Shown here: positions 13,620-34,014 of the stretch, piece by piece
Layout of the letters: every line of letters starts with the position of its first letter
How positions within the stretch are numbered: position 1 is the first letter of the stretch
DNA from: Nitrososphaerota archaeon
Lineage (GTDB): Archaea > Thermoproteota > Nitrososphaeria > Nitrososphaerales > Gagatemarchaeaceae
Direction: 5' to 3'
Assembly: GCA_027887005.1 (NCBI GenBank)
Contig: JAPCJI010000008.1
Location: forward strand, 2,162 to 66,161
Length of the DNA: 64,000 nt
The notes under the pieces: generated by a model
The model's database searches: none
Seen by the model: only the letters and a program-made list of their open reading frames with translations
Told to the model about the DNA's origin: nothing
Translations under genes and position numbers: made by a program

Positions 13620-13803
13620 GGAAACGATTCCGACGAGGCCGAGCTTGTGGCCTTAAAACAATTCGTGGGTTCTGGGAAGTGTATCCAGCTGTCGAAGTCG
13701 CTCGATGAATCTTCGAGGCGTGGTCGGCTTTATTACAACCCCGGGCCCCAGGCCCGCTGTGAAGAGTTCGGGTCTTCTCCGCCAAAGCGAGCAGCCCGCG
13801 AGG

Positions 13804-14052: not shown

Positions 14053-14165
14053 TCTTCTGAAGGTCGGGGAAGCCACTCGTCCTCCAGCTTGCGGGCTGCG
14101 TTGCATGTCGCGCACGGTCGCCTTCAGTCAAACGTAAAAACCCACTCCAGAGGGGACTGTCTGCG

Positions 14166-15302: not shown

Positions 15303-15604
15303 CGCCCCTCACCTCCGCGGACCTTGAGGTTGACCTGCTGATCTTCCTCCTCTCGACCCTCCTTGGGCAGGAGCTCATCAGGCATGTTTCGCGCCTTCTC
15401 CACACTCCCCTGATGGCCCTGACCAATGCAATCTCATCAGTCTCGTTCGTGGCTGCCCTGATCGTGCTTTCGGAGCCTGGCAGCGAGTTGGTCTCGCTCT
15501 TGGCCGGGGTCGCGGTGGCACTGGCGGCGACGAACATCGTGAGTGGGTTCCTGATCACCGACCGGATCCTGAGGCTCTTCGAGAGGAGGAAGCCGAAGAA
15601 ATGA
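15299..15604 (+). CDS. pntAB: NAD(P) transhydrogenase subunit alpha part 2 (membrane)
   Basis: 101 aa, hydrophobic. Start overlaps the stop of pntAA. Confidence 0.8.
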   Translation: MTPLTSADLEVDLLIFLLSTLLGQELIRHVSRLLHTPLMALTNAISSVSFVAALIVLSEPGSELVSLLAGVAVALAATNIVSGFLITDRILRLFERRKPKK

Positions 15605-16989
15605 GCGACCTTCTGGTTGAGTACCTGTACATCGTGTCCGCTGTGCTCTTCGTGCTTTCGCTGAAGTTCATGAGCGAGGTCAGGACCTCCCGGCTGGGAA
15701 ACTTCTGCGGCGTCGCTGGCATGGGTCTGGCTGTGGTGGCGACCCTGGGCGCCTTCCAGGTCGGACGCGTGGACCTTCTGGTGGGAGGGGTAATCATCGG
15801 AGCCGCCCTCGGGGCCCCCATAGGCCTCAAGGTGGCGATGACGGCCGTGCCGCAGAGGACGGCCATGTCCCACGCGTTCGGGTCGCTCGCGGTAGCCCTG
15901 GTCGGGGCGGCAGAGTACTACCAGGGAGCCCCTGCGATTGACACGTTCACGCTTTCTGTGCTTTCAGCGGAGATGATCCTCGGCTTCCTGACCTTCACGG
16001 GAAGCTGCCTGGCCTTTGCGAAGCTCCAGGGGTTGATCACCGGCAGGCCAATCCTGTTCCGTGGGAGGACTGTAGTCAGCCTCACGACCCTTGGCGCTGC
16101 CGTCGCTTCAGGTGTGCTCCTCGTCGCCTACCCAGGTCAAGAGTACCTCCTCCCTGTGATGGCCGCCCTGGCGCTCCTCTTCGGCTTCCAGCTCGTGGTC
16201 GCCATTGGTGGGGCGGACATGCCCACGGTCATCGCGATCCTCAACTCGTTCGCGGGGCTTTCGGCGGCCGCCCTGGGATTCGTCCTAAACAACAAGCTGC
16301 TCATTGTTGCTGGGTCCCTCGACGGGTCGTCGGGGCTGATCCTCGCCCTGATCATGAGCAAGGCCATGAACCGGTCCTTCGTGAACATACTCTTCGCCGG
16401 GGTCGGGGCGCACCCGGTAGCAGCCGCGGTCCAGCCAGGAGAGCAAGGCAGGACCGCCCAGACCTACACCGTCGAGGACGTGGCGACCATCCTGGCGAAC
16501 GCCCAGCGGGTGGTCTTCGCCCCCGGGTACGGCCTCGCGGTGGCCCAGGCCCAGCACGTGGTCAAGGAGCTGGCTGACGTCCTGCAGGCGAGGGGGGTCG
16601 ATGTGAAGTACGCCATACACCCGGTGGCCGGGCGCATGCCGGGGCACATGAACGTCCTGCTGGCGGAGGCCCAGGTCCCCTACGAGCAGCTCTGGGAGAT
16701 GGACCGGATCAACCCGCTCTTCCCCGAGACGGACGTGGTCATGGTAGTCGGGGCGAACGACGTCACGAACCCCGCGGCGAGGACGAGGGCCGACTCGCCC
16801 CTGTACGGAATGCCGATTCTGGACGTGGACAAGGCGAAGACGGTCGTATTCATCAAGCGGTCCATGGGGGCGGGCTTCTCGGGAGTCGAGAACGACCTAT
16901 TCTACAACCCCAACACGATGATGGTCCTCGGGGACGCGAAGAAGGTGGTCGGGGAGCTCGTCTCAGCGATGAGGAAGCAGAGCACCTAG
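15601..16989 (+). CDS. pntB: NAD(P) transhydrogenase subunit beta
   Basis: 462 aa. Membrane dII domain plus a C-terminal dIII domain (GYGLAVAQAQ, YAIHPVAGRMPGHMNVLLAEA, GANDVTNP). Confidence 0.9.
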   Translation: MSDLLVEYLYIVSAVLFVLSLKFMSEVRTSRLGNFCGVAGMGLAVVATLGAFQVGRVDLLVGGVIIGAALGAPIGLKVAMTAVPQRTAMSHAFGSLAVALVGAAEYYQGAPAIDTFTLSVLSAEMILGFLTFTGSCLAFAKLQGLITGRPILFRGRTVVSLTTLGAAVASGVLLVAYPGQEYLLPVMAALALLFGFQLVVAIGGADMPTVIAILNSFAGLSAAALGFVLNNKLLIVAGSLDGSSGLILALIMSKAMNRSFVNILFAGVGAHPVAAAVQPGEQGRTAQTYTVEDVATILANAQRVVFAPGYGLAVAQAQHVVKELADVLQARGVDVKYAIHPVAGRMPGHMNVLLAEAQVPYEQLWEMDRINPLFPETDVVMVVGANDVTNPAARTRADSPLYGMPILDVDKAKTVVFIKRSMGAGFSGVENDLFYNPNTMMVLGDAKKVVGELVSAMRKQST

Positions 16990-17024
16990 ACTTCCCACAC
17001 TGGGACGGCGGGAATGTGACGCAG

Positions 17025-17570
17025 TCACTCTTGCTGGACATACGGTCTGATGAGTTCCGCTTCTGACAGTGGCTGTCTCTTGAACCAGACCACCTCGATT
17101 ACACCAAAGGTCTTCTTCAGGCCGTCCTGTATTTTGGCCATCAACGCCTGAACGTCTTCTCGTGACATCTTCTCGCCCTGCTCCTTGTGCGAACGGAGTT
17201 CCATTATGGTTTCGTTTATGGACGAGATCAATTCGATAGGCCCGACGTGGCTAGCGTTTTCCCTCGCCATCTTCAGACACGAGGAGATGGATGAGCTAGT
17301 TTCCTGCCACATGAGCATGATCAGCGCTTCATGGGGGGTCTTTGAGCTCAAGCCCCAGGCGGATGAGATCCTTTCCAAGGCCTGATAGAACCCCTTTTCG
17401 GTACTGGAAGTTGAGAGGAGTGCGGCTGCGTCCAGAGCCCTACAGATGTTTTCCGCACGCTCCAGCCATCGCCCCATCCAGATTAGGTTGTAGACCCGCG
17501 AATCCGTTAGCCACCTGTCCTTGGCAAAGACGACAGAACGAGGGTCTTCCGATGGCTTCGCGCCAGCCAT
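17025..17570 (-). CDS. short alpha-E domain protein (DUF403-like)
   Basis: YNLIWMGRWLERAENICRALD is the hallmark alpha-E N-terminal motif. At 181 aa it is shorter than the usual ~300 aa. Confidence 0.65.
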   Translation of the reverse strand: MAGAKPSEDPRSVVFAKDRWLTDSRVYNLIWMGRWLERAENICRALDAAALLSTSSTEKGFYQALERISSAWGLSSKTPHEALIMLMWQETSSSISSCLKMARENASHVGPIELISSINETIMELRSHKEQGEKMSREDVQALMAKIQDGLKKTFGVIEVVWFKRQPLSEAELIRPYVQQE

Positions 17571-17591
17571 GAGGTTATTCGGACACTACGG

Positions 17592-18452
17592 CTAATATGT
17601 GTTTGTCCTGGTCGCAGAAGCGAAGACTCGACTCAACCCTCCCGTGCCAGTCGACAGGAAGGTTCCGTTGACTGGTGAGACATCGGTATAGTCTCGCCCC
17701 ACAGCTAGTTTCAGGTAGTTTGTTCCTGCGTCGATCATTATTGCCTTCGTTGGGTCGGCCGGCAGCCACCCACATTGTGGATGGAGAAACTCAAGGTACG
17801 CATGGGTGTCACCATCCTGGCCCGTTAGGATGCAGCTCACGTAACGGGAAGGTATCCACAGCGACCTAAGGATGCCCAACGCCAAGTGGACCTTATCCTG
17901 GCAGACACCCCTGCCGTTGGCTAGCACCTGGTGTGCTTCCGTTAGGACAGTAGTAGTGCCCTTCTCGTACTTGATGTTGTCATGCACCCACTGGGTTATC
18001 TTTCCGACAGTATCCAGGAGGCTGTCAGAATCCCCCGCAATTTTCACGGCTAGGTCACGCAGGAGTAAGGGCTTCACCAGGGGCGAGGGGGAGAGAAAGT
18101 TCGTCACGTCCTGGTTGAAGTTCATGTTCTGTAGCTGTGCGTCGGGATACGGTCCGTGCCAGGGTGCAAGCCTGAATTCTCCCTGTGAGACGATGCTCAG
18201 TTCCTTGTGCCTGGTCGTCACCTTGATGCGCCGGACGATGTTGCCGTAGTCGTCGCTGAATTCTACGTATGCGGAGGGCGGAGAGGTCACCACATCGTAG
18301 CTATCGAGGAAAGTGTGGTCGTCCATGTGCGGTATGACGCGCAGGAAATCGTCGTTCTGAAGCACGTAATCCGAGTACCGGTAGACCGTTTCGTACTTGT
18401 ACCGTCCAGCGAACTCGGTCTGGCCTATTTGAGAACCCATGTTGGCTTGCAC
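17592..18452 (-). CDS. transglutaminase-like cysteine peptidase with Bact_transglu_N-type N-domain
   Basis: Candidate Cys-His-Asp triad: GRGVCQDKVH, DTHAYLEF and WLPADPT. Confidence 0.8.
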   Translation of the reverse strand: MQANMGSQIGQTEFAGRYKYETVYRYSDYVLQNDDFLRVIPHMDDHTFLDSYDVVTSPPSAYVEFSDDYGNIVRRIKVTTRHKELSIVSQGEFRLAPWHGPYPDAQLQNMNFNQDVTNFLSPSPLVKPLLLRDLAVKIAGDSDSLLDTVGKITQWVHDNIKYEKGTTTVLTEAHQVLANGRGVCQDKVHLALGILRSLWIPSRYVSCILTGQDGDTHAYLEFLHPQCGWLPADPTKAIMIDAGTNYLKLAVGRDYTDVSPVNGTFLSTGTGGLSRVFASATRTNTY

Positions 18453-19741
18453 GACCCACCGGAAGAGTTGTTGGTAATCCTTGTGTTGGCTCGGGCAACA
18501 CGTGTAAGCCCACCTGGAAAGACGGTCACCCTGCCCTCCCCGTCCTGCACCGCGTAGACCCGGAGGTCGATGTATCGTTCCTGAAACCCTCCTGACTTCC
18601 TATCGAATACCACGTGCTTTGAGAAGTCCAGCGGCTCCTGCGCTATGAAAGCGAATGGCCTGTCGATGATCCGTTGCGACATCTCTTTGCGGTGACTCTG
18701 ATCAAGATCCTGCATGATGTAGACTCCGAGTCCCCCGTACCCCTCCCTCGCCTTGAAGACCAGTTTACCAATGTTCTGGAGCGCAAACTGCCTGACCTTC
18801 GGATCCATGAGGTTGTAGGCCTTGGCGTTGGGTAGGATCGGTTCTTGCCCAAGGTAGCGGCGTATCATCTCCGGCACCCACAGGTATACCAGCTTGTCGT
18901 CCGCAACCCCTGTACCCAGCGCGTTCACGAGAATTACCTTGCCCTGCCGGTACGCTTCAGTAAGGCCCGGGACAAAGAGCTCTAGGTCTTCCACCCTTCG
19001 GTAGATGAGGTCGACCCTGACGTCCCCGTCGATGGTCCTGGCCCGGACTGTCCCGTCCTCAGCTATGAAGAGGTCGGAGCCTTCGACAAGAGGAATCCCT
19101 AGTATTTCGGATAGGTACCGATGCTCGAAGAACGCCGGGCCGTAGCTGCCATCGGTCAGGATGACACAGGCCGGCGAGCGGGTGTTGCAAAGAGATTCGA
19201 AGAGTCGCAGGTAGGTGCTGCGTATCTCGTAGTCTCTCACTCGGTACGGTCGCTTCAGTTCAGGGATGGCTCTTTCTGTGAGGTTCCTGCACTTGAGTTG
19301 GTACGATATTCCTGAAGGGATGCGCAGGTTGTCTTCCAGGACCACGTAGTTCCCGTCGCCTAGGTTCACAAGGTCGACGCCATAGATGTGCGCGTAGACG
19401 TCCTTGGCCGGCCTTACCATCTGGAGAGCGGGGTTGAAGTTGACTGAAGAGTAGACGACGCTCTTGGGGACCACGTCCTGCTTGCCGCAGTAGAGTTCCA
19501 GGAGGAACTTGTTGATCGCCCTTAGGCGCTGTTCGACGCCAGCGGCTATGCGTGACCACTCCTCGCGTCCGATCAGCCTGGGAACCCAGTCGATTGGGAC
19601 GGGCCTCCAACGGTGCGGGTCAAGCTGGAAGGTGAACGAGTCCAACTCAACCTGCCGGTTCGCGTTCGACCACCTCTTGCCGATCTCCCTTGCGCCGAGA
19701 CCGTTGATGGTCTCGATCATCTTAGAATAGGGAGCCCTCAC
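18425..19741 (-). CDS. circularly permuted ATP-grasp type 2 protein (DUF404/DUF407)
   Basis: 438 aa. Family-typical length, segments (LLELYCGKQDVVP, VVLEDNLRIPSG, ERYIDLRVYAV) and genomic context. The GTG start could instead be the ATG 21 nt downstream. Confidence 0.75.
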   Translation of the reverse strand: MRAPYSKMIETINGLGAREIGKRWSNANRQVELDSFTFQLDPHRWRPVPIDWVPRLIGREEWSRIAAGVEQRLRAINKFLLELYCGKQDVVPKSVVYSSVNFNPALQMVRPAKDVYAHIYGVDLVNLGDGNYVVLEDNLRIPSGISYQLKCRNLTERAIPELKRPYRVRDYEIRSTYLRLFESLCNTRSPACVILTDGSYGPAFFEHRYLSEILGIPLVEGSDLFIAEDGTVRARTIDGDVRVDLIYRRVEDLELFVPGLTEAYRQGKVILVNALGTGVADDKLVYLWVPEMIRRYLGQEPILPNAKAYNLMDPKVRQFALQNIGKLVFKAREGYGGLGVYIMQDLDQSHRKEMSQRIIDRPFAFIAQEPLDFSKHVVFDRKSGGFQERYIDLRVYAVQDGEGRVTVFPGGLTRVARANTRITNNSSGGSCKPTWVLK

Positions 19742-20019
19742 GCTCCTATCTGGACCGAAGACTTCATTGTTGTCTGATGGAATCGGTGTTTGCAGGGATG
19801 TGAAAGAGAAAATGGACGAGAAAAACGTTTAGCCCACCTGGAGGGTCGTTGTCATGCGTAAAGCCAGCAAAGAGAATGTTTCCCCAGGTCTGCAAGGCTT
19901 AGACTGCATTGACTGCCCGAGGCACAACATCCGCTTTCAGTTTAGCAATCGCCTCTCCAGAATTGCCAATCTTGTGCAAGTCTTAATTATAGGAGGGTCG
20001 AAATGGGGACGAAGGAAAA

Positions 20020-20235
20020 ATGAGACGAGCGATTCCAATCGTAGTGGGCATCATACTTCTTCTGCTCGGAATTGTATGGGGGGCGCAGGGAGCCGGGGTA
20101 GCAGGGTCAAACAGTTACATGGACAGCAACCCGACCTTCATTAGCCTGGGCGCAGTTGTCGCCGTTATCGGGGTCGTGTTCATCGCCATCGGGACCTTCT
20201 GGAGAACCAAAACCGCCCCGTCTTCGACTTCGTAA
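20020..20235 (+). CDS. small two-TM membrane protein, hypothetical
   Basis: ATG about 30 nt downstream of a TATA-like cttaattatagg. Confidence 0.4.
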   Translation: MRRAIPIVVGIILLLLGIVWGAQGAGVAGSNSYMDSNPTFISLGAVVAVIGVVFIAIGTFWRTKTAPSSTS

Positions 20236-20292
20236 CCACACGCGATCGCCGCGGTTCAATGCACATCGGCTGCGGATTCCACCGAGACGATT

Positions 20293-21369
20293 CTAACCGA
20301 ATGTGAACGTGTAGAGTTTGAACCCGGGACCTGCGATTATCTCCAACTCATGCCATCCGTAGGAGGGCCCATTGACGATGTCGTAAAGCCTCGCCGAGCC
20401 TATGTTCACAGACGCAACGCCCTGATGCAGCATCACGTCGCTCCCGACGTATGTCGGAGACAGATTGTTGCCGTCCAACCTTACCTCTATCACACTGGAA
20501 TTCCCCTCCGCGACGACGTTGACGTTCTTGGCCTGGTAGATCAGGAACAGCTTCGAGCCGTTTCCAACCGACACCATGCCGTCAGGCGCGTTGTACCATT
20601 CGCCCGAGAAGTACACGGTGTTGTTCTGCATGTTCCCGGTGATGGTGTAGTCGACGACCTGTCTCGGTGAGAATCCCTGAGGGTTCCCTATCGATGACCT
20701 TGCTGTGTTGTAACCGACGTAGATCTCCGGGGTTCCTATCTTGCCGAAATCCACGCTGGTCGCGTTCACAGAGTTGGCAACCACCCCCGCGCTCACATTG
20801 TACCCCGCCTTCTGCAGCAACCCTATGATCAGCGTTTCGGTGGTGTTGTATCCCCCCTCTCCTATGTGCGTCTCCCTGATGTTTCCCTTCGCGTCTATGA
20901 GGTAGTCTGCCGGCCAGTAGTGGTTGTTGTAGGCGTTCCAGGTGGCGGAGTTGCTGTCCAAGGCGACGGGGTAGTTTATCCCGAACGACCTGACCGCTGC
21001 CAAGACGTTGCTGTAGTTCTTCTCAAACTGGAACTCGGGGGTGTGCACGCCTACGATCACCAGCCCGTTGTTCCCGTATTTGTCGAACCAAGCGTTGAGG
21101 TAAGGGATCGTCCGTATGCAGTTGATGCAGGAGTAGGTCCAGAAGTCCACCAGGACCACCTTCCCACTCAGCCCCGAAATGTTCAGGGGCTGGGTGTTGA
21201 TCCAGGCTGCTATGCCCTGAAAGTTCGGGGCCGGGCCAAGGTTGGGGAGGTTCGACACGTTTTCGACGGTTTGAGATGGGCTGAGAAACGGGAGTAGGAC
21301 CGACACACCTGCCGCAACTATCACGATGCCAACGATTCCAAATACGATCACGTACGCGTTGAGCCTCAT
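20293..21369 (-). CDS. membrane-anchored thioredoxin-like (TlpA/redoxin) protein with a DipZ-like C-terminal beta domain
   Basis: N-terminal TM segment, the CxxC motif WTYSCINCIRTIP, then a ~150-aa beta-rich C-domain. Confidence 0.7.
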   Translation of the reverse strand: MRLNAYVIVFGIVGIVIVAAGVSVLLPFLSPSQTVENVSNLPNLGPAPNFQGIAAWINTQPLNISGLSGKVVLVDFWTYSCINCIRTIPYLNAWFDKYGNNGLVIVGVHTPEFQFEKNYSNVLAAVRSFGINYPVALDSNSATWNAYNNHYWPADYLIDAKGNIRETHIGEGGYNTTETLIIGLLQKAGYNVSAGVVANSVNATSVDFGKIGTPEIYVGYNTARSSIGNPQGFSPRQVVDYTITGNMQNNTVYFSGEWYNAPDGMVSVGNGSKLFLIYQAKNVNVVAEGNSSVIEVRLDGNNLSPTYVGSDVMLHQGVASVNIGSARLYDIVNGPSYGWHELEIIAGPGFKLYTFTFG

Positions 21370-22115
21370 CGTTTCGCCGCCTCCACTGAGGTGCCAGACA
21401 CGAACGCCAGGAATGCCGGCACGAGCGGCAGTATGCAGGGCGAGATGAAAGTCAGGAACCCCGCGGAGAGAGCGATCAGAAAGTTGAGCTGGGACTGGGC
21501 GAGTGGGTTTGCCAAAGAGCCCAGTGGGCCAACCCCATTTAGGAAGATCTGTAGGATTCCGATGTAGTTGGTGACCACGAGCAACCCCACCCCTATCAAG
21601 AACAGCCCGCTGACGACGTTGAAGTACCTCAGGAACCTCCCACTCTTCTTAAGAAACCCGGAGACCCTCGATACGAACGCGCCGGCTACGAGGAAGGGGA
21701 TGCCCAACCCAAGGGAGAACGCCATGAGGTATAGGAATCCTAGTCCGGGTGAGACGGCTGCGAGGGTGTAGACAGAGCCGAGAATCGCGCCCACGCAAGG
21801 GGTCCACCCTAGGGCGAAAGCGACCCCGAACGCTACTGACGTCACATAGTTGTTCTTGAACTTCCTCGGGCGAATCTTGTGCTCGACGCTGAAGAACGGT
21901 ATCGCGTACCTGACAGATGCGATCATGAGGATTCCGAAGACCACAATGACGGACCCACCGACCAATCTGATCGTGTTGATGGCACCGAGCGAAGCAGTGG
22001 AAAGAACAGTCTGCAGCAGCACCCCCACGATTGAAAACACGAAGGTAAACCCTAGAACGAAGAACACCGAATTCAGGAAGACCTCCTCTCTGGCCCTCGC
22101 CGGATCTGTCGACAT
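21366..22115 (-). CDS. ccdA: CcdA/DsbD-family thiol:disulfide electron transporter
   Basis: FISPCILPLVP and GWTPCVGAILG conserved cysteine motifs, about 6 TM segments. Stop overlaps the downstream thioredoxin-like gene. Confidence 0.8.
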   Translation of the reverse strand: MSTDPARAREEVFLNSVFFVLGFTFVFSIVGVLLQTVLSTASLGAINTIRLVGGSVIVVFGILMIASVRYAIPFFSVEHKIRPRKFKNNYVTSVAFGVAFALGWTPCVGAILGSVYTLAAVSPGLGFLYLMAFSLGLGIPFLVAGAFVSRVSGFLKKSGRFLRYFNVVSGLFLIGVGLLVVTNYIGILQIFLNGVGPLGSLANPLAQSQLNFLIALSAGFLTFISPCILPLVPAFLAFVSGTSVEAAKR

Positions 22116-22288
22116 GTTGCCAGGTCACACGGGTCTCATTACAGGCGTTAGGCAGCCGCCTTGGTCGCGTCGTTCATAGCCAGAACTGGCTTGGAAAATG
22201 ACCTGCATGTTCTCAGTTTCTCACGTGGACTCCGATATTTATGGAGATAGCAGAGGCCGAACCTCAGGAGCGTCAGGGTTCCAGAAGT

Positions 22289-22302
22289 TGCCCCGGCCGG
22301 GA
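22289..22302 (+). repeat. copy of the tRNA-Glu 3' end (tgccccggccggga), candidate att remnant
   Basis: 14/14 identical to 28549-28562, in the same orientation, inside a 418-bp non-coding gap. Confidence 0.5.
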
Positions 22303-22533
22303 ATATGAAACTGCGCGTACGAGTTCCTGACGAGTTCTAAGCCCTGCGAGGCTCCGGGTCCGAATCCCCAAGCGGCCCCTCCCCGGTTTTCACAGCGGAC
22401 TCAGCGTAACACGTTGATGAGCATCTCTATGTCTCCCGCAAACAGATGCAAACAGGGTTCGAGTCAAATAAGCCATTGTAAGAACAGAGACGAAGTGCGG
22501 TGCCAGGATTCCCACTGGCATCACTGGGTTGGC

Positions 22534-23403
22534 TTAGCTAGGCAAATGCAGAGCTGCTTCAAGCTCGGTCGTCTGGCGAAGCCAGGTTGAGGGGAGGCTC
22601 ATGGCACTCGCAATAAGGCAGAACCCTCCAGCAGTAAACGGGATGAATGCCACCAGAAGGTCTACGAAGGGGTCGCCCGAGGACGGTATCAGAGTGGATT
22701 CTCTCAGGACACCAAAGAGTTCCAGCGCGAAGAACAAGCCGAACCACATCGCGTGTCTTCGGATTGCAGCATCCTTGCCCCTCAGAGCGAAGACAGGTAG
22801 GCCCACAGCACCCGCGGCAAAGGTGACGAAGGGCGGAAGCCAGAATGCCCCCTGTTGGGCTACGTGCTGCGTTGCTCCTGAAACGGTCACAGTGTACGTG
22901 GATGGGCTGAACAAGTACGCGACAGCTATGACGACGGAGACCACGAACGCGATCCATAGAACCGCCCGCAATTTCGTCTCGCGACCAGCGCGCTGGGATT
23001 GCGAGCCAATGCCCGCCACAGGAATCACCGTCCTGTCCACTCCGTAGAGCATCATCGCTGCCCCGACGTACACAATCATGAATTGCGCCTGTTGATAGAG
23101 GAAACCTCCGAGCAAGCCTGCTCTGAGAAGTGCCAGGAAAGAAGTCGCGCCGACGAAGACAATCGCGAACCCCAGGGCAGCGAGTCCTGTACCGGTGGCT
23201 CGAGCCCGCTGGCCCTGGTCGTTGAATTTGACCCTCACTCTGAGGGCGAATATGGCCGCTGTCAGCGCGACAATTATGATCAAGGCGGTCAATCCGTAGT
23301 ATGTGGGGTCAAAGACGACGTTTTCGAGGCTCGGCCCTGTGTTTGGCGAGATGCTTTCCGACGAAACGGCGACCGATTGCAGGATTCCTGGGAGTGGATT
23401 CAC
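22534..23403 (-). CDS. polytopic membrane protein, hypothetical
   Basis: 289 aa with about 7 hydrophobic helices. No recognisable motif. Confidence 0.45.
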   Translation of the reverse strand: MNPLPGILQSVAVSSESISPNTGPSLENVVFDPTYYGLTALIIIVALTAAIFALRVRVKFNDQGQRARATGTGLAALGFAIVFVGATSFLALLRAGLLGGFLYQQAQFMIVYVGAAMMLYGVDRTVIPVAGIGSQSQRAGRETKLRAVLWIAFVVSVVIAVAYLFSPSTYTVTVSGATQHVAQQGAFWLPPFVTFAAGAVGLPVFALRGKDAAIRRHAMWFGLFFALELFGVLRESTLIPSSGDPFVDLLVAFIPFTAGGFCLIASAMSLPSTWLRQTTELEAALHLPS

Positions 23404-23508
23404 GCCGGATTATGCAGACACCAAGTGAATACTTAACAAACCGTCTGGATGTAAAGTGGGGATAACGTCCACATCGGTTATATCTGCGAAGCGCCAGTAA
23501 CCGTAGAA

Positions 23509-23877
23509 ATGGACGGATCTGCCAAGGCGACTGAAGAAACTGTTGAGATGGGGCTAGGCGACCTTGAAGAAGCCTTGAGATTCGTGAAGGCGGACGCGTC
23601 AAACCTTCTGAGTGACCTTCTCAGGGGCATCTCCATGTGGGGCTTCACCGCCCTGATGGCGTTCCTTCTTGCCGCCATATGTCTCGTCCTTTCACAGGTC
23701 ATCCTCACCTATGCCCATCCATACGGTTCTCTCCCACCAATCCTCGACATCCTGTACGTCAGCTACGGATTCGCGATAGGGTCGGCATTTCTTGGCTTCG
23801 TCCTTTTCTGGAGATACTACTCGCTCAGGAAGAGATACGCGAGACTCTTTGAAATAGTGGGAAGCCTGCGCCGATAG
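23509..23877 (+). CDS. two-TM membrane protein, hypothetical
   Basis: 122 aa with an ATG start. Hydrophobic segments WGFTALMAFLLAAICLVL and YVSYGFAIGSAFLGFVLF. Confidence 0.4.
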   Translation: MDGSAKATEETVEMGLGDLEEALRFVKADASNLLSDLLRGISMWGFTALMAFLLAAICLVLSQVILTYAHPYGSLPPILDILYVSYGFAIGSAFLGFVLFWRYYSLRKRYARLFEIVGSLRR

Positions 23878-23881
23878 AGAC

Positions 23882-24184
23882 GTGAGCTCTCTCCCCGGCG
23901 TCTCGAACAGAATACTTCAGTACCTCAACAAGATAAGTGACGAAGCGGGCAGAGCTAAGAGAATGGATTTCCTGAGAATTGCAGGGAACGAAGCCAACCT
24001 CGACGACTGGGTGAAGTACCTGGTCCAGTGCAATCTGGTAAGACTCGAGGTATCTCCGGCAGATGGAAGAACCACATACGTCATGACTGGATTCGGTCAT
24101 AAGGTGCATCAGATTTTGAAGGATTATCATTATCTCGGCCCACTCTTCGGCGACCTCAGCAGAAACAGGCGTAGGCGTCAATAG
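23882..24184 (+). CDS. small winged-helix-like DNA-binding protein, hypothetical
   Basis: 100 aa. RILQYLNKISDEAGRAKRMDFLRIAG...VKYLVQCNLVRLE resembles a wHTH. Begins 4 nt after the preceding ORF. Confidence 0.4.
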   Translation: MSSLPGVSNRILQYLNKISDEAGRAKRMDFLRIAGNEANLDDWVKYLVQCNLVRLEVSPADGRTTYVMTGFGHKVHQILKDYHYLGPLFGDLSRNRRRRQ

Positions 24185-24517
24185 GGAGCACACGAACGCA
24201 ATCGTAAGGCGTAAGGAAGTTTCAAGCGAGACTGCCACCAAGTCAGCGTTGAAATCCGAATTTGAGCAGGGAAGCGGAAAGGAAGGAGAAGTGAACCCGT
24301 AGGTTTGATGCCCAGGCCGGGACCTGAGCACCCATATGGGTGCCCTTTCGTTCTGCCAGATGCTTGGGCAGGCGACCACGATATGGCGGCAACATGATTG
24401 CATTCATACCAGGGTTGTGCGGTCGCCGCGCAGTTGAACTTGGGTTCAAATCCTAACGGGATCCCCCTTCATGCTCGCTTCATGTGAGGATGCGCTCTGT
24501 CTGACACTACGCTTCCC

Positions 24518-25726
24518 ATGTCTGAGAAACGTGGACTGGCCGTAAATACGCTTCAACACGCCTCGTTGTCGAGAGATTTGGCTCCGCGAAAGCGGACCCC
24601 TCTACGGGCCCTCATAGTTATTTCCATTCTCATGCTACTTGTTCTTGTCAGCCTTCCCGAACAGCCCTTGGCAGTGTACGAGGGTTCCCTCCTGGGTTTA
24701 GTAGGGGTTTGGACCGTCGCTCTCTTCGTCTTTAGAAGCCGCAGCCATACGTTGCCGCAACGTCGGCAACAGCCTGAAAGGGAGCATACGAATCCGACTG
24801 TTCTCGCAGAAACCTCAGCGTCCTTGAGCCAACCAACTGTGGCTTCCAACGGTCTGCGAGAGGCGATGCGAAAACACCCGCTGTTCTGCTTCTTCTTGAT
24901 CGCCTACGCGTCCTCGTGGGTCGCTTTGATACCCGGCATCCTTTCGGTTTGGGGCTTCCTGCGGTTCGATTACACGATTTCATCCATCCTGAGCTCGTTT
25001 GCGGGACCGCCCGTGGCGGCCGTGATAATGACCTACATCACCGAGGGGAAAGCAGGCGTGAATGGCTTGCAGCGGCGTCTTAGACAACGAGGCGCCGGCA
25101 AGCCGTGGTATCTGTTCATACTGCCGTGCATTCCATCGCTGCTCTTGCTTGGGATAATTGTCCAGCCAGGAATGCTTGCGAGCTTTCAGGGTCTTACCCC
25201 CACCCTTTTGGTGACCTATCCTGCATACTTCTTCGTGGTCTTCTTTGGGGTTGCGCTGCCCGAGGAAATCGGTTGGCGCGGCTTCGCGCTACCCCGCATG
25301 CAACCACGCTATGGACCGCTTTGGGGTACTCTGCTTCTAGGCGTCCTGTGGTCCTTCTGGCACCTGCCCCGCTTCCTGGCGCCGGACCAAGGGGGCGGGC
25401 CAGGCACGGGCATCGCCACCTTCCTCACAAACTTTTCCGTCTTCTTTCTCTTGCTTCTGGCATTGGCGATTATCTTCACTTGGGTCTTCAACTATACCGG
25501 AGGAAGCGTCTTCATCTCCAATTTGTTGCATGCCAGTATCGATACCCCAGCAGCTGTCTGGATACCCCTCTTCGCTGCCGTGAACGTGACGAGCATAGAC
25601 TTGGCCAACCTCATCGCGTTTGGAGTGCCAGCACTTTTGATTCTCATCCTGACCCGGGGTCGGCTTGGATACAGACCAGTGATTATGGCTGCCCCGAGGA
25701 AAGCGGAGGTCGTGCTGCAACCGTAG
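24518..25726 (+). CDS. CPBP family intramembrane glutamic endopeptidase (CAAX/Abi type) with a ~120-aa N-terminal extension
   Basis: LPEEIGWRGFALP, FWHLP and a later LLHASID motif. Confidence 0.75.
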   Translation: MSEKRGLAVNTLQHASLSRDLAPRKRTPLRALIVISILMLLVLVSLPEQPLAVYEGSLLGLVGVWTVALFVFRSRSHTLPQRRQQPEREHTNPTVLAETSASLSQPTVASNGLREAMRKHPLFCFFLIAYASSWVALIPGILSVWGFLRFDYTISSILSSFAGPPVAAVIMTYITEGKAGVNGLQRRLRQRGAGKPWYLFILPCIPSLLLLGIIVQPGMLASFQGLTPTLLVTYPAYFFVVFFGVALPEEIGWRGFALPRMQPRYGPLWGTLLLGVLWSFWHLPRFLAPDQGGGPGTGIATFLTNFSVFFLLLLALAIIFTWVFNYTGGSVFISNLLHASIDTPAAVWIPLFAAVNVTSIDLANLIAFGVPALLILILTRGRLGYRPVIMAAPRKAEVVLQP

Positions 25727-25781
25727 CGATTGACTCCCTAAACTTCATAGTCACGTTTGCCCTGACCAGGGATATCGCACA

Positions 25782-26270
25782 ATGAGCAAGAATTCAACTC
25801 ATGTCATTCGACGCGTGAACGCGACGCGTGAAAGAATCTACCGCGCGCTTGTTGATCCGATTGCGATTGCCAAGTGGCGGGCGCCAAATGGGATGACAAT
25901 GCGCGTGCATTCATTTGAAGCTCGCGAGGGTGGCCCGTTTCGGATTTCCCTCGAATATGACGATCCAACATCGAAAGGCAAAACTAGCGCGCGCACTGAC
26001 ACATATCATGGTCGATTCGTAAAGCTAGTTCCAAATGAGCAAGTCGTCGAAGTGGACGAGTTTGAATCCATGGACCCCGCGCTTGCAGGCGAGATGACAA
26101 TAACGATTACGCTTGTGGGAGCGGGTGGAAGCACCGACGTCATTGGCATACACGAAGGACTACCGCCGGGAGTGTCAACCGCCGACAACGAGCAGGGTTG
26201 GCGAATGGCACTCGGAAAGCTCGCCAAAATGGTTGAGACCAAAGAAAAACGCACCCGTAGCAGAACTTGA
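25782..26270 (+). CDS. SRPBCC / AHSA1-domain protein
   Basis: IRRVNATRERIYRALVDPIAIAKW is typical of Aha1-like SRPBCC proteins. Confidence 0.65.
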   Translation: MSKNSTHVIRRVNATRERIYRALVDPIAIAKWRAPNGMTMRVHSFEAREGGPFRISLEYDDPTSKGKTSARTDTYHGRFVKLVPNEQVVEVDEFESMDPALAGEMTITITLVGAGGSTDVIGIHEGLPPGVSTADNEQGWRMALGKLAKMVETKEKRTRSRT

Positions 26271-26338
26271 GAGGTCAAGGCTCTTGAACTTCTGACTCAT
26301 TGAAATGAATTGGGACGGTGGGGTTGGGTAGCAATAGT

Positions 26339-26350
26339 GTGCCCCGGCCG
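26339..26350 (+). repeat. partial copy of the tRNA-Glu 3' end (gtgccccggccg)
   Basis: 12/12 identical to 28548-28559. An upstream gaattggg box also recurs at similar spacing (32 vs 27 nt). Confidence 0.45.
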
Positions 26351-26491
26351 AGCTTAGCACCAACTAGCTAATTGCCCTGACATACTCTAGGTGAATGAAC
26401 CGGTAGGGAAAGGTCACCTTTGTGGACCATGCGTTAGCCCAGCCATCTTGAAAACCACCTCAAGACGACAATAGCAATAATGCTTGCGTGA

Positions 26492-28513
26492 TTAGAACGT
26501 CGCTCTCAGCTTCTGCATTAATGCCTGGTATCTAGGATCATCTCTTGATTTGGCCAGAAGTGGACAATACATCACGTACGCATATCGAATTGTGTGTTGG
26601 TCAAGTGCCAGATTGGCATAAGTGAAGTATGAATCGAGGTCCCCGAGAGCGTGGTAGATGAAGGCGATGTCATTCAGGTTCGTGGCTCCAAGCCACTTCT
26701 TCTCAATTTCTTGAATTACATCTAGGGCTCCTTTTCTGTCACCCGTGTAGCCAGCTATGAAGCCTCTCATCCATGTGGCCCAGCGATGAGTGGGGTCCAA
26801 CCTTTCTACTTTCGAATGAAACTCCCTCGCCTTTTCGACGTCACCTTTGTAGAGGTAATATTCGGTCATCGCTCTGTATGTGCCAGCGGGGGCGACCAGC
26901 ACCGTCTTCTCCCAGTGCTGCAGAGCCTTGTTCTCCATCCCAAGGTAGAAGTAGAACTGTCCAAGTCGCTCTGCGTAGCGCGCCAATACCGGATCTAGTC
27001 TGTAGCAACTCTCCGCGGCACTGATCCCTTCTTCCTTTTCGCCTCTCGTCAGAAAGACGTTGGACAGGACAAAGTGAGCCTCCGCAAGACTAGGGTTCAA
27101 TTCGATCGCACGTCTGGCTTCAGTTTCGCACCCTTGAATATCATCCTCTTGGAAGTGTACCCTTGCTAGAGTGGCATGCGCTTCGGCCAGTTCTGGGTCA
27201 ATTTGTAGGGCCTTTCTAACCGAGATATCTGCCTTGGGCATGTCCTGTTCATATGGCTCGTAGTTGTCGGTAACAAGCTCTGTGTAGGCCCAGGCAATTC
27301 CAGCATGAGCTTTGGCAAAGGTAGGATCAAGAGTTATCGCTCTTTCAAGTAATCCCAATGCCTGCCTCAAGGAGGATTCCGTCCTTTCGCGGATGAGCTC
27401 TCGTCCTCTCAAATACAGGGTGTAGGCCTCCGTGTTCTCTGTCGGCCTTCTTTCAATAACCCGTTTCTCATCCTCAACAAGTCGGATCTTGAGTTCCCCT
27501 GCGACCTTCTCAGCGATTTCAGATTGGATGGCAAAAACATCTTCCAATTGCCTGTCGTAATTCTGGGCCCAAATGTGACCTTCAGTCGCAGTGTCGATGA
27601 GCTGGGCAGTAATCCTGACCCTGTTTCCCGCCTTCCTCACGCTCCCTTCTAGCATGGTGCCTACCTCCAACTCCTTTCCAATCTCCTTCACTTTCTTCGT
27701 CGTCCCCTTGTATCCCATAACCGAAGTCCTAGCGATGACGGTGAGCTGCCTCACGCCGGATATTGAAGTGATGAGTTCCTCGGTCACGCCATCGGCGAAG
27801 TACCCCTCCTCTGGATCGGAGCTCAGGTTGGTGAATGGGAGAATTGCGATACGCTTCTTGTCCAATACAACGCCCATGGATTCCGGCCTCTCCCAAGGGA
27901 ACACCACCCTGAAAACCTCCAAGGATTCTCCGACGTTTTTCAGTTCTTTCTTGCCGATGCTGAGAAGTTGAAAATCAGATTTGTTCTTTACGTGGTCGTA
28001 CACATGCTCTGAAATGCAGACTCCTCCCGGCGTAGCAAGAGGTTCTATTCTGGAGGCAATGTTGACCGCGTCCCCGTATACATCGTTCTGACTGTGTATT
28101 ACGTCCCCTAGGTGGACACCTATTCGGAGAAATATCTTCCTATCCACGGGGCGACTTGAGTTGAGCTCATGCAGAGACTCCTGTACGTCGAAGGCGCACC
28201 TGACTGCCTCAAGGGCGCTTTCGAACTCTATGAGGAAAGCGTCGCCGATGGTTTTGACCTCTCTCCCGCCATGCCTCAAGAGCACGGGCCTGACGAGGAT
28301 ACGCTGTTCTTCCAAGAGTTCCATCGCAACTGCTTCATTCTTCTGCGTGAGGGATGTGTAACCAACTATGTCGGTGAACATTATCGCGGCGAGCCTTCGT
28401 TCCCCTTCTGACACAGAAAACTCCAGTCGTTTGGCCGTACCACAGGTTAACTCTTTCGTAGAGACCCAGCAACATTGTGGATCACGACGACATGGTATGA
28501 TGCCCCTCTCCAC
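26492..28513 (-). CDS. class III adenylate/guanylate cyclase fused to a TolB-N-like linker module and TPR repeats
   Basis: Cyclase motifs AAIMFTDIVGYTSL, GDAFLIEF, RIGVHLGDV and GDAVNIASR. These are followed by IAILPFTNLSSDPEEGYFADGVTEELIT and then multiple TPR units. Start uncertain (GTG). Confidence 0.8.
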   Translation of the reverse strand: MERGIIPCRRDPQCCWVSTKELTCGTAKRLEFSVSEGERRLAAIMFTDIVGYTSLTQKNEAVAMELLEEQRILVRPVLLRHGGREVKTIGDAFLIEFESALEAVRCAFDVQESLHELNSSRPVDRKIFLRIGVHLGDVIHSQNDVYGDAVNIASRIEPLATPGGVCISEHVYDHVKNKSDFQLLSIGKKELKNVGESLEVFRVVFPWERPESMGVVLDKKRIAILPFTNLSSDPEEGYFADGVTEELITSISGVRQLTVIARTSVMGYKGTTKKVKEIGKELEVGTMLEGSVRKAGNRVRITAQLIDTATEGHIWAQNYDRQLEDVFAIQSEIAEKVAGELKIRLVEDEKRVIERRPTENTEAYTLYLRGRELIRERTESSLRQALGLLERAITLDPTFAKAHAGIAWAYTELVTDNYEPYEQDMPKADISVRKALQIDPELAEAHATLARVHFQEDDIQGCETEARRAIELNPSLAEAHFVLSNVFLTRGEKEEGISAAESCYRLDPVLARYAERLGQFYFYLGMENKALQHWEKTVLVAPAGTYRAMTEYYLYKGDVEKAREFHSKVERLDPTHRWATWMRGFIAGYTGDRKGALDVIQEIEKKWLGATNLNDIAFIYHALGDLDSYFTYANLALDQHTIRYAYVMYCPLLAKSRDDPRYQALMQKLRATF

Positions 28514-28548
28514 TCTTGCAGAATTGGGCCTGTTTCATGTGAAAGACG

Positions 28549-28660
28549 TGCCCCGGCCGGGATTCGAACCCGGGTCGCCGACTCGAAAGGCCAGCATACT
28601 CTCGGCCTGCTCGCACGGAGTTGACCGGGCTGTACGCGCAGCGCTCTATACTACCGGGGC
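28549..28660 (-). tRNA. tRNA-Glu(UUC) with ~37 nt of extra sequence in the D-loop (non-canonical intron or introns)
   Basis: Hand fold of the reverse complement:
- acceptor gccccgg/ccggggc
- anticodon arm ctggc-ctttcga-gtcgg
- T-arm ccggg-ttcgaat-cccgg
- D-stem gtat/gtat enclosing 48 nt instead of about 11. Confidence 0.75.
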
Positions 28661-28680
28661 TGAATCGCACCCTCTTTGCT

Positions 28681-29409
28681 TCAGCAATTAGAGCTTTCGC
28701 GGATGATTGGCCTCAGGAAGCACCATTCGCCAAGTCCAGCGAAGAACTCAGCCTGTTTCGCGTGGGAAGGAAGCAGGAGGGAACTGAAGTGGAGCATCCC
28801 TCCTTTGGGAAGGTAGGAGTTCCTCCCTCGTCTTTCACCCGTCGCCCTCAGCGTCGACGAAACGGCGTCGGGGTCGAGCGACGACTCATAGTATTGGCGT
28901 CGGCCGAGGACCCTGACTCTGCTTCCCTCGGTCGGGAAGTCGGTGATGAAGATGCAGCCTTCCTTCGAGGATCTGACGACCATCAAGACGACGTCCCGCT
29001 CATCGGGGGTGAGCCCGCACTCTCCCGCAGCCCGCAGATCGGCCCACAGGGGGGAGGATTCCATTCTGGTGGAGAACCTGACTGTGAGCGACCCCCCGGA
29101 CCTGCCTCCGCTGAAGTAGCGGGCCCTGAGTTGGTCTATTGCCAACCCCTCGCGTTCCATCTTCAGGAGGTCGGGGAGCGCAGGACCGAACGCGTCGCTC
29201 GGGTCTTCGCGCGACCAGCAGAGCCCTGCTGGGTCGACGTGGAGGACCGTGTCTCCTTTCCGCGCGACGAACACCCTCGACCCCCCTACGGTGTAGCCCT
29301 TGGTCCTGAGGCGGTCGGCGATGAACCGTGTCTGGGACTCGGCGAGCTTAGGCAGGGGCAGGTACCAGGTCTCGCCGAGTTTGATCACCCTCCAGGTGTA
29401 ACTGGACAA
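28681..29409 (-). CDS. hypothetical protein (242 aa)
   Basis: Balanced amino-acid composition. The opposite-strand 324-aa ORF is R/G/P-rich and overlaps the tRNA. TTG start. Confidence 0.45.
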   Translation of the reverse strand: MSSYTWRVIKLGETWYLPLPKLAESQTRFIADRLRTKGYTVGGSRVFVARKGDTVLHVDPAGLCWSREDPSDAFGPALPDLLKMEREGLAIDQLRARYFSGGRSGGSLTVRFSTRMESSPLWADLRAAGECGLTPDERDVVLMVVRSSKEGCIFITDFPTEGSRVRVLGRRQYYESSLDPDAVSSTLRATGERRGRNSYLPKGGMLHFSSLLLPSHAKQAEFFAGLGEWCFLRPIIRESSNC

Positions 29410-29518
29410 CCGCGCTTCATCTCAACGAAACATTATATAGAATATGAAAGGGTGAAAATTCGAGGTCTCAAGGTTGGATGGTCGCCGGGCTGTCTCGCTC
29501 GAAGCAATCGACGCACGG

Positions 29519-30331
29519 ATGAAATCGTACCGGGAAAGGGCGGACGGAGCGATGGCGACCGAGCTGGCGCTCTACAAGCATTCGAGGTTCCATGACCCGC
29601 TGGTGTACGCCGTGGAAGGGGGGAAGAGAGTCAGGCCCGTGATGCTAATGCTCTCCGCCGAGGCGCTCGGCTGCAAGGACGACTCCGTGCTGGGAGCGGC
29701 GGTCGCGGTCGAACTCCTGCACACAGAATCGATCATCCATGACGACATCATCGACGAGGAGCTCGCTAGGAGGGCGAAGATGACGTTCCACGTGAAATAT
29801 GGCTACAGCGCATCTCTGCTGACTGCAGACTTCGTCTTCTCCATGATCTTGGCCATCGCTGCCAGATACAGGGACAGGCGCGTAGCCGAAGAGCTGAGCA
29901 ACGCAGCCCTCCGCATGGCCGAAGGGGAGTACTCGGAACTGACGATAGACCCAAAGGTGTACAACCTTACATGGGACGAGTATCTGAAGATCATTTCGGA
30001 AAAGACGGCGGCTCTCTTCGAGACGTCAGCGAAGCTTGGAGCACTGGTCGCGGACGGGAATGAAAGGGAGGTCGCAGCGCTCGCTGCCTACGGCAGGAAC
30101 CTTGGTACGGCCTACCAGCTTCGGGACGACCTGTTGGACTGGAGGTCGCAGGACAAGATTGCCATAGGCCTGCTCAGGAATCATAGTGAGAGCGAAGTCG
30201 TGGGCAAGATGACAGCTCTGTCCCAGACCTATGTCGAAGAGGCAAAGCGGCAGCTGATGGTGCTGCCCAGGAGCAGTGCCACCGACTTCCTTGAACTTCT
30301 GACTGACTTCACGATACAGAGAAAGTACTGA
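29519..30331 (+). CDS. idsA: polyprenyl (geranylgeranyl) diphosphate synthase
   Basis: First aspartate-rich motif LLHTESIIHDDIID and second YQLRDDLLD. An upstream in-frame TTG at 29474 is also possible. Confidence 0.8.
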   Translation: MKSYRERADGAMATELALYKHSRFHDPLVYAVEGGKRVRPVMLMLSAEALGCKDDSVLGAAVAVELLHTESIIHDDIIDEELARRAKMTFHVKYGYSASLLTADFVFSMILAIAARYRDRRVAEELSNAALRMAEGEYSELTIDPKVYNLTWDEYLKIISEKTAALFETSAKLGALVADGNEREVAALAAYGRNLGTAYQLRDDLLDWRSQDKIAIGLLRNHSESEVVGKMTALSQTYVEEAKRQLMVLPRSSATDFLELLTDFTIQRKY

Positions 30332-30356
30332 CTGGCGCGAAGGCGGATCTGGGAGC

Positions 30357-30671
30357 TTACCCTGATTGTCCGAGTATGATGAACGCGATGGCGAATCCGT
30401 AGATTGCGATTGCCTCTGCAAGCACCACGAAGATAAGGGCCGTCGTCCTGACCTCGGCCTTCTCGGTGACCGCTGCGATTGCCGCTGAGCCAGAGGTCCC
30501 AACGCCGATGCCTGCTCCGAGCGCCGCGAGTCCGAACGCGATTCCCGCAGCGATGAATTTGTTGCCGTTCGACGCTGCTCCGGTGGTCTGTGCCGCCGCG
30601 GGTCCAGGCAGGGCGGCGAACGTGATTGCGAGGAATGTCGCGGCCAGAAGCATCACGAAGAACCTGCGCAT
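30357..30671 (-). CDS. atpK: A/V-type ATP synthase proteolipid subunit K (c) with a signal-peptide-like N-terminus
   Basis: Hairpin GLAALGAGIGVGTSG ... VVLAEAIAIYGF with the carboxylate Glu. The N-terminus is MRRFFVMLLAATFLAITFAALPGPAAAQ. Confidence 0.8.
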   Translation of the reverse strand: MRRFFVMLLAATFLAITFAALPGPAAAQTTGAASNGNKFIAAGIAFGLAALGAGIGVGTSGSAAIAAVTEKAEVRTTALIFVVLAEAIAIYGFAIAFIILGQSG

Positions 30672-30749
30672 GAATCGACGAATCAGCGCCCTCGAAGACC
30701 CAATATAAAGATTGCAGCGAATTTTCGGCTATGGGCCCAGGGCGGCGAC

Positions 30750-31802: not shown

Positions 31803-31920
31803 GAAATCGAAACTCCCTGCTTGAACGGGCCGAAGCTGGTCGGCTTATATTGGTTTCAGAGCTTCGGCAGTTTCGTCCGCCGGGTTTCAGGGGTCGAATC
31901 GTCAGGACTGCTCCCTAACC

Positions 31921-34007: not shown

Positions 34008-34014
34008 AGGGAGG

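Follow-up and report, generated by a model that had tools for sequence, protein, structure and literature searches.

Partial copies of a tRNA-Glu 3′ end separate integrase-less modules at a probable integration hotspot in uncultured Nitrososphaerales

The 3′ end of a tRNA-Glu(UUC) gene borders an AT-rich accessory region in a 64,000-nt stretch (the window) of contig JAPCJI010000008.1 from a Nitrososphaerota archaeon (assembly GCA_027887005.1). Three partial copies of this 3′ end, junctions J1, J2 and J3, lie downstream of the gene, and between them and the tRNA are three modules, M1 to M3, in which no integrase was found by Pfam (Table 1). The array is likely to be the product of serial tRNA-targeted integration at the tRNA-Glu 3′ end, which left integrase-less modules of ~2 kb. 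Protein matches place the window in uncultured Nitrososphaerales of ~60% GC from soil or peat, and loci of relatives are referred to below by L numbers.

The tRNA-Glu gene (28549-28660) is longer than the ARAGORN call, which covers 28548-28621, and Rfam scores only its 3′ part, with 20 bits. The spliced product of 75 nt is folded by ARAGORN as a canonical tRNA-Glu(ttc). The 14-mer TGCCCCGGCCGGGA (28549-28562) is the exact 3′ terminus of the gene and comprises the discriminator, the 3′ strand of the acceptor stem, the 3′ strand of the T-stem and one further base. These 14 nt are the recombination core. Homologues of the tRNA in L107 and L164 have fewer or different introns. In L107 (9111-9201), a single intron in the T-loop takes the place of the two in the window, and the gene is inverted in an otherwise collinear locus, its 3′ end facing orf242, the gene immediately upstream of tRNA-Glu in the window.

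The best three non-self ungapped plus-strand matches to the tRNA 3′ region in the whole window are J1, J2 and J3, all of them direct, anchored at the tRNA terminus and downstream of tRNA-Glu. A profile built from the junction copies and run on the window with nhmmer matches only 22273-22314, 24292-24336, 26324-26365 and the tRNA itself. An earlier interpretation of this DNA, which we call the sequence-only reading, had cited J3 and J1 as copies lying in non-coding gaps, and both are as described. The 14 nt recur exactly in J3, the outermost detectable junction, which sits in a 418-nt gap (22116-22533). In J1, 12 nt (GTGCCCCGGCCG) recur exactly at 26339-26350, in the gap between the stop codons of the SRPBCC and adenylate cyclase-TPR genes, and the similarity extends to 26361. 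The third copy, in J2, had been overlooked. J2 is probably non-coding, because it falls inside an implausible N-terminal extension of the open reading frame (ORF) 23825-24403. The inner arm of J2 (GAGCACCCATATGG) resembles the arm of an L158 copy, and that of J3 (GGGAATATGAA) resembles an L144 copy (GGGAATATCAA).

Two further resemblances carry less weight. A box, GAATTGGG, which the same reading described as shared by J1 and the tRNA-proximal flank, is indeed present at 26307 and 28521; a further copy is found at 61354, and the box is weak evidence because its spacing to the core differs (24 nt versus 19 nt). A motif at 17006-17019, held by that reading to be a fainter copy at the compositional boundary, lacks significance: it scored below every threshold applied (ungapped match scan, junction profile), was rejected as the outermost attachment (att) copy and is not counted as evidence. 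When the ATP-grasp module is delimited against L165, its end is 3 nt away from this motif. Besides the inverted T-arm-like fragment inside J3 (Table 1), a second occurs at 24442-24453, and a similar arrangement is seen beside the L158 copy, at 12677-12687. Rfam, at E ≤ 10, detected no extra tRNA-like genes or fragments in the island.

Could short matches of this kind be fortuitous? The core contains a 10-nt palindrome (CCCGGCCGGG), a 200-nt query should find one 12-mer match by chance in 64 kb (an unrelated 12-mer was found at 10573), and an 18-nt junction pattern matched a GC-rich viral contig evidently at random. Thus, a GC-rich, partly palindromic motif might recur by chance in a region whose low GC is ordinary gene variation. 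The matches were therefore compared with 2000 first-order Markov simulations of the 14.9-kb variable region (delimited below), by scoring ungapped matches whose anchor was the 3′ terminus of the tRNA. The observed scores are 14, 13 and 11.5; a score of at least 14 occurred in 0/2000 simulations, at least 13 in a fraction of 0.0015 and at least 11.5 in 0.029, and two anchored matches of at least 11.5 were found together in 0/2000. CCCGGCCGGG occurs in the 64-kb window only at 22292 and 28552. Together with the strand and side asymmetry of the copies in relatives and their covariation with the local tRNA, described below, these results effectively refute a chance origin.

Direct proof of integration at tRNA-Glu comes from two relatives. 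Positions 274-1133 of L071 are 79% identical to 189-1048 of L074, and the L071 tRNA-Glu with the sequence beyond it matches L074 9775-9996 at 93%. Because L071 matches both flanks of L074, L074 represents an occupied site, with 8.6 kb (1186-9774) that are absent from L071, the empty site. A 19-nt copy of the tRNA-Glu 3′ end marks the boundary of the insert, and after it comes a trailer of ~25 nt like the tRNA-adjacent one; the inserted DNA encodes glycosyltransferase, GH130, Hsp20, HMA and CopG-like proteins.

The same arrangement recurs across lineages. When each locus was scanned with its own tRNA-Glu 3′ end (108 kb downstream, 199 kb upstream), the anchored copies numbered 10 direct and 0 reversed downstream, and 2 direct (both in L102) and 0 reversed upstream. 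L158, scanned separately, yielded two more downstream direct copies. Eight other lineages thus carry one to three copies (three in L144, two in L158 and one each in L074, L101, L120, L128, L142 and L148), 11–20 nt in length. The copies track the local tRNA variant, GGGCGGG being found with GGGCGGG and GGCCGGG with GGCCGGG. Every copy begins at the base opposite the discriminator, and exact identity usually stops after GGGA, 14 nt in. Beyond the core, the inner arms are degenerate and T-arm-like and resemble one another across lineages, and the trailer arms fall into families common to several lineages; in L148, a 25-nt trailer is 22/25 identical between tRNA and copy.

Partial tandem duplication of the tRNA region by unequal or illegitimate recombination, followed by decay, would also leave direct copies confined to the tRNA neighbourhood, with inner arms that look like a decayed T-arm; the intervening genes would then stem from unrelated rearrangements. 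However, all copies share the same start base and lose identity sharply within the T-stem, a pattern characteristic of a defined crossover core. Moreover, L071 and L074 differ by a clean insertion with target duplication, and the inner arms are closer to one another across lineages than to the local tRNA. Local duplication is, in our view, very improbable. The proposal of the sequence-only reading, serial integration into the tRNA-Glu 3′ end, is supported by the L071/L074 pair, by copies in eight other lineages that match their own tRNA variant, and by the break in homology at the tRNA.

That break was seen among the 80 loci returned by a metagenome scan with idsA. In most of them (>20 relatives), tRNA-Glu, orf242, idsA, atpC and nuo are collinear, and in nearly all, DNA homology with the window ends at 28549, the tRNA 3′ end. 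orf242 shows this synteny in >20 loci, always immediately upstream of tRNA-Glu. Its family is restricted to the clade and has 116 homologues, the few with organism names all being from Thaumarchaeota or Nitrososphaerales. The nearest comparators by nuo and atpC identity are L084, L107, L113, L095, L108 and L165. Although its idsA is 85% identical, the L074 group stands further away by these genes. The window idsA (29474-30331) is 85–86% identical to that of L070–L078, whose atpC is 52–55% and nuo 62–72% identical, while relatives closer by nuo reach only 74–80% in idsA. This discrepancy could reflect transfer or conversion, or an unusual constraint.

On the other side of the accessory region, the 397-amino-acid anchor gene is 70–72% identical at the amino acid level in two relatives, L107 and L113; 0.2 kb separate it from tRNA-Glu in the former and 3.2 kb in the latter. 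L107 is collinear with the window genes at 6.1–13.6 kb and then passes directly to tRNA-Glu. The variable DNA between the two anchors measures 0.2 kb in L107, 3.2 kb in L113, 9.75 kb in L158, where the cargo is entirely different, and 14.9 kb in the window; as a whole, 13660-28548 is absent between the same anchors in all three relatives. Since these anchors bracket other or almost no DNA, the lineage-specific region starts at ~13660 and comprises 13660-28548, pntAB included. The pntB stop, which the sequence-only reading took for the left edge, thus lies within it. Of the island it outlined, 22289-28548 is delimited by junctions; 13660-22288 is a mosaic without them. The same reading suggested asking whether pntB adjoins tRNA-Glu in relatives. 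This idea was rejected, as the pntAB loci of 18 other Nitrososphaerales have unrelated contexts and nothing else in common with the window. The pntB protein is identical to one in the metagenome-assembled genome (MAG) GCA_044451885.1, on a 10.2-kb contig (L001) that ends inside the transglutaminase gene, at about window position 17712.

Composition sets the region apart. The four 60-nt lines counted by hand in the sequence-only reading (32/60, 27/60, 47/60 and 45/60 G+C) are all exact, and the GC content of 16990-28562 is 0.548, against ~0.60–0.61 in the flanks (0.601 for 1-13659 and 0.610 for 28661-43200); pntAB, with its upstream DNA (13660-16989), has 0.621. In 500-nt windows, the values inside and outside the region are 0.548 and 0.602 (Mann–Whitney p = 1e-10). 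The junction-delimited part, 22289-28548, is lower still, at 0.538 versus 0.610 for the backbone. GC at third codon positions (GC3) is 0.53–0.79 in island genes and ~0.78–0.88 in clear backbone genes. It is 0.53–0.66 in the junction-delimited part, versus ~0.8 in the backbone, and in the outer part reaches 0.76–0.87 in pntAB, 0.75–0.79 in the thioredoxin-like and CcdA genes and 0.68–0.74 in the ATP-grasp operon; the outer part (13660-22288) is thus nearer to host composition than 22289-28548. Arrays in five of eight lineages are 5–9 GC points AT-richer than the backbone. Hence the window shows two features of tRNA-targeted elements: a composition that differs from the host backbone, and a direct repeat of the tRNA 3′ part at the distal end of the insert (14/14, 13/14 and 19/23).

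Table 1. Features of the accessory region at tRNA-Glu and of its two backbone anchors. Positions are those of the window.
Feature	Position	Strand	Details
Left backbone anchor	12426-13619	-	conserved 397-amino-acid gene; weak ScmC/PEPCK-like match; promoter motif CCTTAAAAC at ~13651
Mosaic segment	13660-22272		lineage-specific; no junction by nhmmer
Small ORF	13705-14052	+	
pntAB	14166-16989	+	
ATP-grasp/transglutaminase/short alpha-E module	17022-19831	-	
Alpha-E	17025-17570		Pfam
Transglutaminase	17592-18452		Pfam
Circularly permuted ATP-grasp	18425-19741		Pfam
Small membrane ORF	~19854-20235	+	
Thioredoxin-like/AhpC	20293-21369	-	Pfam
CcdA/DsbD_TM	21366-22115	-	Pfam
Junction J3	22273-22314	+	14/14 direct copy of TGCCCCGGCCGGGA at 22289-22302 plus flanking arms; nhmmer E = 5e-6
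Module M3	22315-24291		2.0 kb; the three ORFs below
T-arm-like fragment	22354-22368	-	14/15 match to tRNA-Glu T-arm; inverted; 52 nt inside J3
Membrane protein	22534-23403	-	
Membrane protein	23509-23877	+	
Small ORF	within 23825-24403	-	
Junction J2	24292-24336	+	direct copy, core 24309-24322, 13/14; nhmmer E = 6e-3
Module M2	24337-26323		2.0 kb; the two genes below
CPBP/Rce1-like protease	~24824-25726	+	Pfam
SRPBCC/AHSA1	25782-26270	+	Pfam
Junction J1	26324-26365	+	decayed direct copy, core 26339-26361, 19/23 identical; nhmmer E = 1e-4
Module M1	26366-28548		2.2 kb; the gene below
Adenylate cyclase-TPR	26492-28513	-	Pfam Guanylate_cyc + TPR; GC3 0.59
tRNA-Glu(UUC)	28549-28660	-	112 nt, two introns; read from the sequence
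tRNA-Glu exons	~28660-28646, 28629-28621, 28599-28549		
tRNA-Glu introns	~28645-28630, 28620-28600		
Right backbone anchor orf242 (OK438_06605)	28681-29409	-	immediately upstream of tRNA-Glu

The cargo list of the sequence-only reading is correct by Pfam. M1 holds the adenylate cyclase-TPR gene, homologues of which lie directly downstream of tRNA-Glu in L113 (40% amino acid identity) and L114 (57–60%). Since it occupies the same position in two relatives, there is no clear sign that this gene came last; it either is long established at the site or was captured repeatedly. In M2, GC3 is 0.65 for the CPBP gene and 0.53 for the SRPBCC gene. The longest ORF of the former spans 24518-25726, and its true length, 300 amino acids, is given by a match at 100% identity (P0001). 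It has >2000 homologues, many of them 60–77% identical and in unrelated contexts, which include one from a 40%-GC organism (75% identity) and one from an Anaerolineales MAG. The contexts of CPBP homologues, inspected for a clue to an intact element, were all different. The three ORFs of M3 (22534-24403) have GC3 of 0.57–0.66 and gave no Pfam, PHROG or NCBIfam match.

In the outer part, the ATP-grasp module is 80% identical at the nucleotide level to L165 2175-4984, and the shared nuo backbone 76%. Its place in L165 is across the nuo cluster, downstream of tRNA-Asn; judging from this position beside tRNA-Asn, the operon is a relocatable unit. Matches of the ATP-grasp protein include unnamed ones at 86–91% identity, one from Nitrososphaerales at 63% and others from Chloroflexi or Dehalococcoidia at ~60–62%. 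The gene order ATP-grasp, transglutaminase, alpha-E is the same in the window and L165. The alpha-E protein (181 amino acids; L165 4436-4981) matches no more than the first half of its Pfam profile, positions 8-133 of 294. Truncation at the island edge was considered and rejected, because the alpha-E protein in the intact operon of L165 has the same length; 181 amino acids is thus a natural short form. In L165, clusters of T-arm-like fragments (e.g., GGGTTCGAACCCGGCGGGGGTCCA) flank the module at 1810-2080 and 5176-5200. They do not match the tRNA-Asn downstream of which the module sits, and may be scars of integration at other tRNAs.

We propose that the tRNA-Glu(UUC) 3′ end acts as a recurrent attB in this Nitrososphaerales clade. 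Each integration would recombine within the core of ~14 nt, made up of the discriminator, the 3′ acceptor strand and the 3′ T-stem strand, restoring the tRNA and pushing a partial tRNA copy outward. An array of copies would result, because successive integrations each displace such a copy. J1 to J3 would then split 22289-28548 into three AT-richer modules of ~2 kb which, being now without an integrase, would represent captured cargo or what remains of elements. An older or differently assembled mosaic would make up the outer 8.6 kb (pntAB, the ATP-grasp operon and the thioredoxin-like/CcdA pair), with modules that are found elsewhere in relatives. The agent would presumably be an integrase of the tyrosine-recombinase type; the order and age of the events are likewise inferred.

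Several observations weigh against serial integration. In agreement with the sequence-only reading, Pfam searches of all ORFs and a six-frame Pfam scan of the unannotated stretches of the window revealed neither an integrase nor a fragment of one, and PHROG and NCBIfam searches of the orphan ORFs gave no integrase remnant. An integrase gene inside the element, as would be expected of a tRNA-targeted element, was thus not found in the window, nor were replication, conjugation and capsid genes; no PHROG match to integrase, replication or virion families was obtained. No integrase was found in L074, L128, L144 or L158 either; the ten largest ORFs of the L074 flank gave no Pfam match to one. In a pooled scan of 60 ORFs from relatives' flanks, the 25 most-hit families, each with at least two ORFs, were listed, which does not exclude a single integrase. 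Modules of 1–2 kb are also smaller than the smallest published thaumarchaeal cryptic element (2.6 kb), and among the relatives found there was no genome close enough to provide an empty site for single modules of the window. Because the adenylate cyclase-TPR gene holds the tRNA-proximal slot in two more distant relatives, a strict order in which the newest module is nearest fails unless distal att copies are also used. Finally, no junction marks the left end of the outer 8.6 kb. The conventional reading of absent integrases is that elements decayed, or genes were captured, once integration had taken place, and it is probably the right one here.

The absence of integrases could be read differently. 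Units of ~1–2 kb with att-like junctions might be integrase-less from the outset, while a recombinase whose gene is elsewhere in the genome inserts and shuffles them and tRNA-Glu (and tRNA-Asn) provides the fixed attachment site; such a platform would be akin to bacterial cis-mobilizable elements or, in function, to integron cassettes. We regard this as unlikely, though some of the data favour it: ~15 modules in nine lineages have a median size of ~2 kb and intact-looking genes, with no integrase or integrase pseudogene; the junction-arm families are common to distant lineages; the ATP-grasp module is near tRNA-Glu in the window and downstream of tRNA-Asn in L165; and several contigs stop at the tRNA 3′ end or close to it, suggestive of heterogeneity within populations. 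However, no candidate recombinase was identified. orf242 was considered as a hidden one and rejected: its confident AlphaFold model (predicted local distance difference test, pLDDT, 95; predicted template modelling score, pTM, 0.91) has no recombinase fold, and its best PDB match is non-significant (E = 0.04, TM 0.23); the fold may be new. Neither an identical module at two junction-bounded positions nor a circular or excised form was seen, the decayed window copies (19/23, 13/14) fit old scars better than active sites, and gene capture, in which the integrase-bearing parts are lost, is known and suffices. In a fuller, integron-like version, likewise unlikely, cassettes of one to three genes, each with a conserved junction of ~50 nt at its end (trailer arm, 14-nt tRNA core and degenerate T-arm), would dock at the 3′ ends of tRNA-Glu and probably tRNA-Asn, and the recombinase encoded elsewhere would insert and excise them and shift them between such hotspots.

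A second tRNA in the window deserves mention. The tRNA-Asn(GUU) gene at 44322-44419, whose true start is at ~44322 and which has a D-loop intron, is followed 1.2 kb downstream, at 45614-45631, by a direct copy (17/18) of its 3′ part (CGAGTCCGAGCGGCGCCG). This copy bounds low-GC DNA (0.547, 43201-46300), and more T-arm-like fragments occur at 45709-45869. tRNA-Asn appears to be another integration hotspot like tRNA-Glu. Nearby, at 43680-43788 (+), an unannotated tRNA-Met(CAU) candidate with two introns (GGGCCCGTAGCTCAG...CTCATA...GGTCGCCAGTTCAAATCCGGCCGGGCCCA) was recognised by eye, having been missed by ARAGORN and Rfam. A further intron-containing tRNA at 5245-5346 (+), called 'tRNA-???' by ARAGORN and scored at 42.9 bits by Rfam, coincides with a local GC dip (0.551).

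Under serial integration, then, one tRNA gene has been a long-lived hotspot of gene flux in an uncultured high-GC thaumarchaeal lineage, as the empty and occupied sites and the recurrence in several lineages indicate. Metagenomic contigs of these organisms would be expected to break at the tRNA because of the hotspot. Assemblies do break at or just past the tRNA-Glu 3′ end in L164, L154, L160 and L161, that of L164 on the last tRNA base, which fits heterogeneity at the population level. Since integrase-first screens would miss such arrays, counts of site-specifically integrated accessory DNA in archaea are probably too low. A short signature that can be searched is provided by the 14-nt core together with its arms (TGCCCCGGSCGGGA with trailer and inner-arm families). 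Two pattern scans of IMG/VR for free elements carrying the junction returned one evidently random match, to an 18-nt pattern in a coding region of the GC-rich viral contig mentioned above.

How does the array compare with known systems? The thaumarchaeal integrated mobile genetic elements, above all the cryptic ones at tRNA genes (Krupovic et al. 2019, PMC6563490), come from the same phylum. Their att sites range from 8 to 25 bp (median 17 bp), and 57% fall within tRNA genes, nearly always in the 3′ part, with intron-containing tRNAs included; repeated use of one site is known to build arrays (PMC6563490). The window array shares with them the 3′-distal tRNA target, including intron-containing tRNAs, the arrays by site re-use, the short repeats (here 11–20 nt) and the assorted metabolic and membrane cargo. 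The published elements are defined by their integrases and span 2.6–98 kb, with a median of 17 kb (PMC6563490). In contrast, the modules here carry no integrase or hallmark gene and most measure 1–2.4 kb; with junction-bounded modules of 2.0–2.2 kb, the window array does not come under the 2019 definition of a cryptic integrated element.

'Suicidal' integrases of the Sulfolobus spindle-shaped virus (SSV) type and archaeal gene capture are treated by Badel et al. 2020 (PMC7253208) and, reportedly, by She et al. (cited in PMC6563490). tRNA-inserted elements of this type become trapped and decay, and tRNA-fragment repeats surround captured genes, as in the window. Crenarchaeal att sites are longer, at 29–69 bp. 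The SSV mechanism leaves integrase halves at attL and attR, whereas none was found here by Pfam, PHROG or NCBIfam.

Cis-mobilizable elements (CIMEs) of bacteria are att-flanked and integrase-less, undergo tandem accretion at a tRNA or another fixed site, and have been mobilised experimentally. The window units are likewise att-flanked, M1 to M3 each being bounded by junction copies or the tRNA and free of recombinases, and they are arranged in tandem next to a tRNA. In a CIME-type array, either att copy can receive an incoming element and, by analogy, this would explain a module order that is not chronological. Unlike CIMEs, the window array is archaeal and known from sequence alone, and no related integrase-bearing partner element was found.

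Integrons also occur in Archaea. Their cassette arrays resemble the window array in consisting of small gene units with repeats derived from recombination sites between them and in growing from one fixed point. Here, however, no IntI is adjacent (the variable-region ORFs scanned and the tRNA-flanking genes gave no Phage_integrase match), and in place of attC hairpins there are linear pieces of tRNA 3′ sequence with arms; their core, a palindrome of 10 nt, has no loop, although no formal attC search was made. The units comprise one to three genes in either orientation, presumably with promoters of their own. If the modules were mobilised in trans, they would constitute a new cassette-type gene-capture system in Archaea. 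tRNA-targeted integration itself is a known process; the unusual points are that integrases are consistently missing, and the modules small, throughout the arrays examined.

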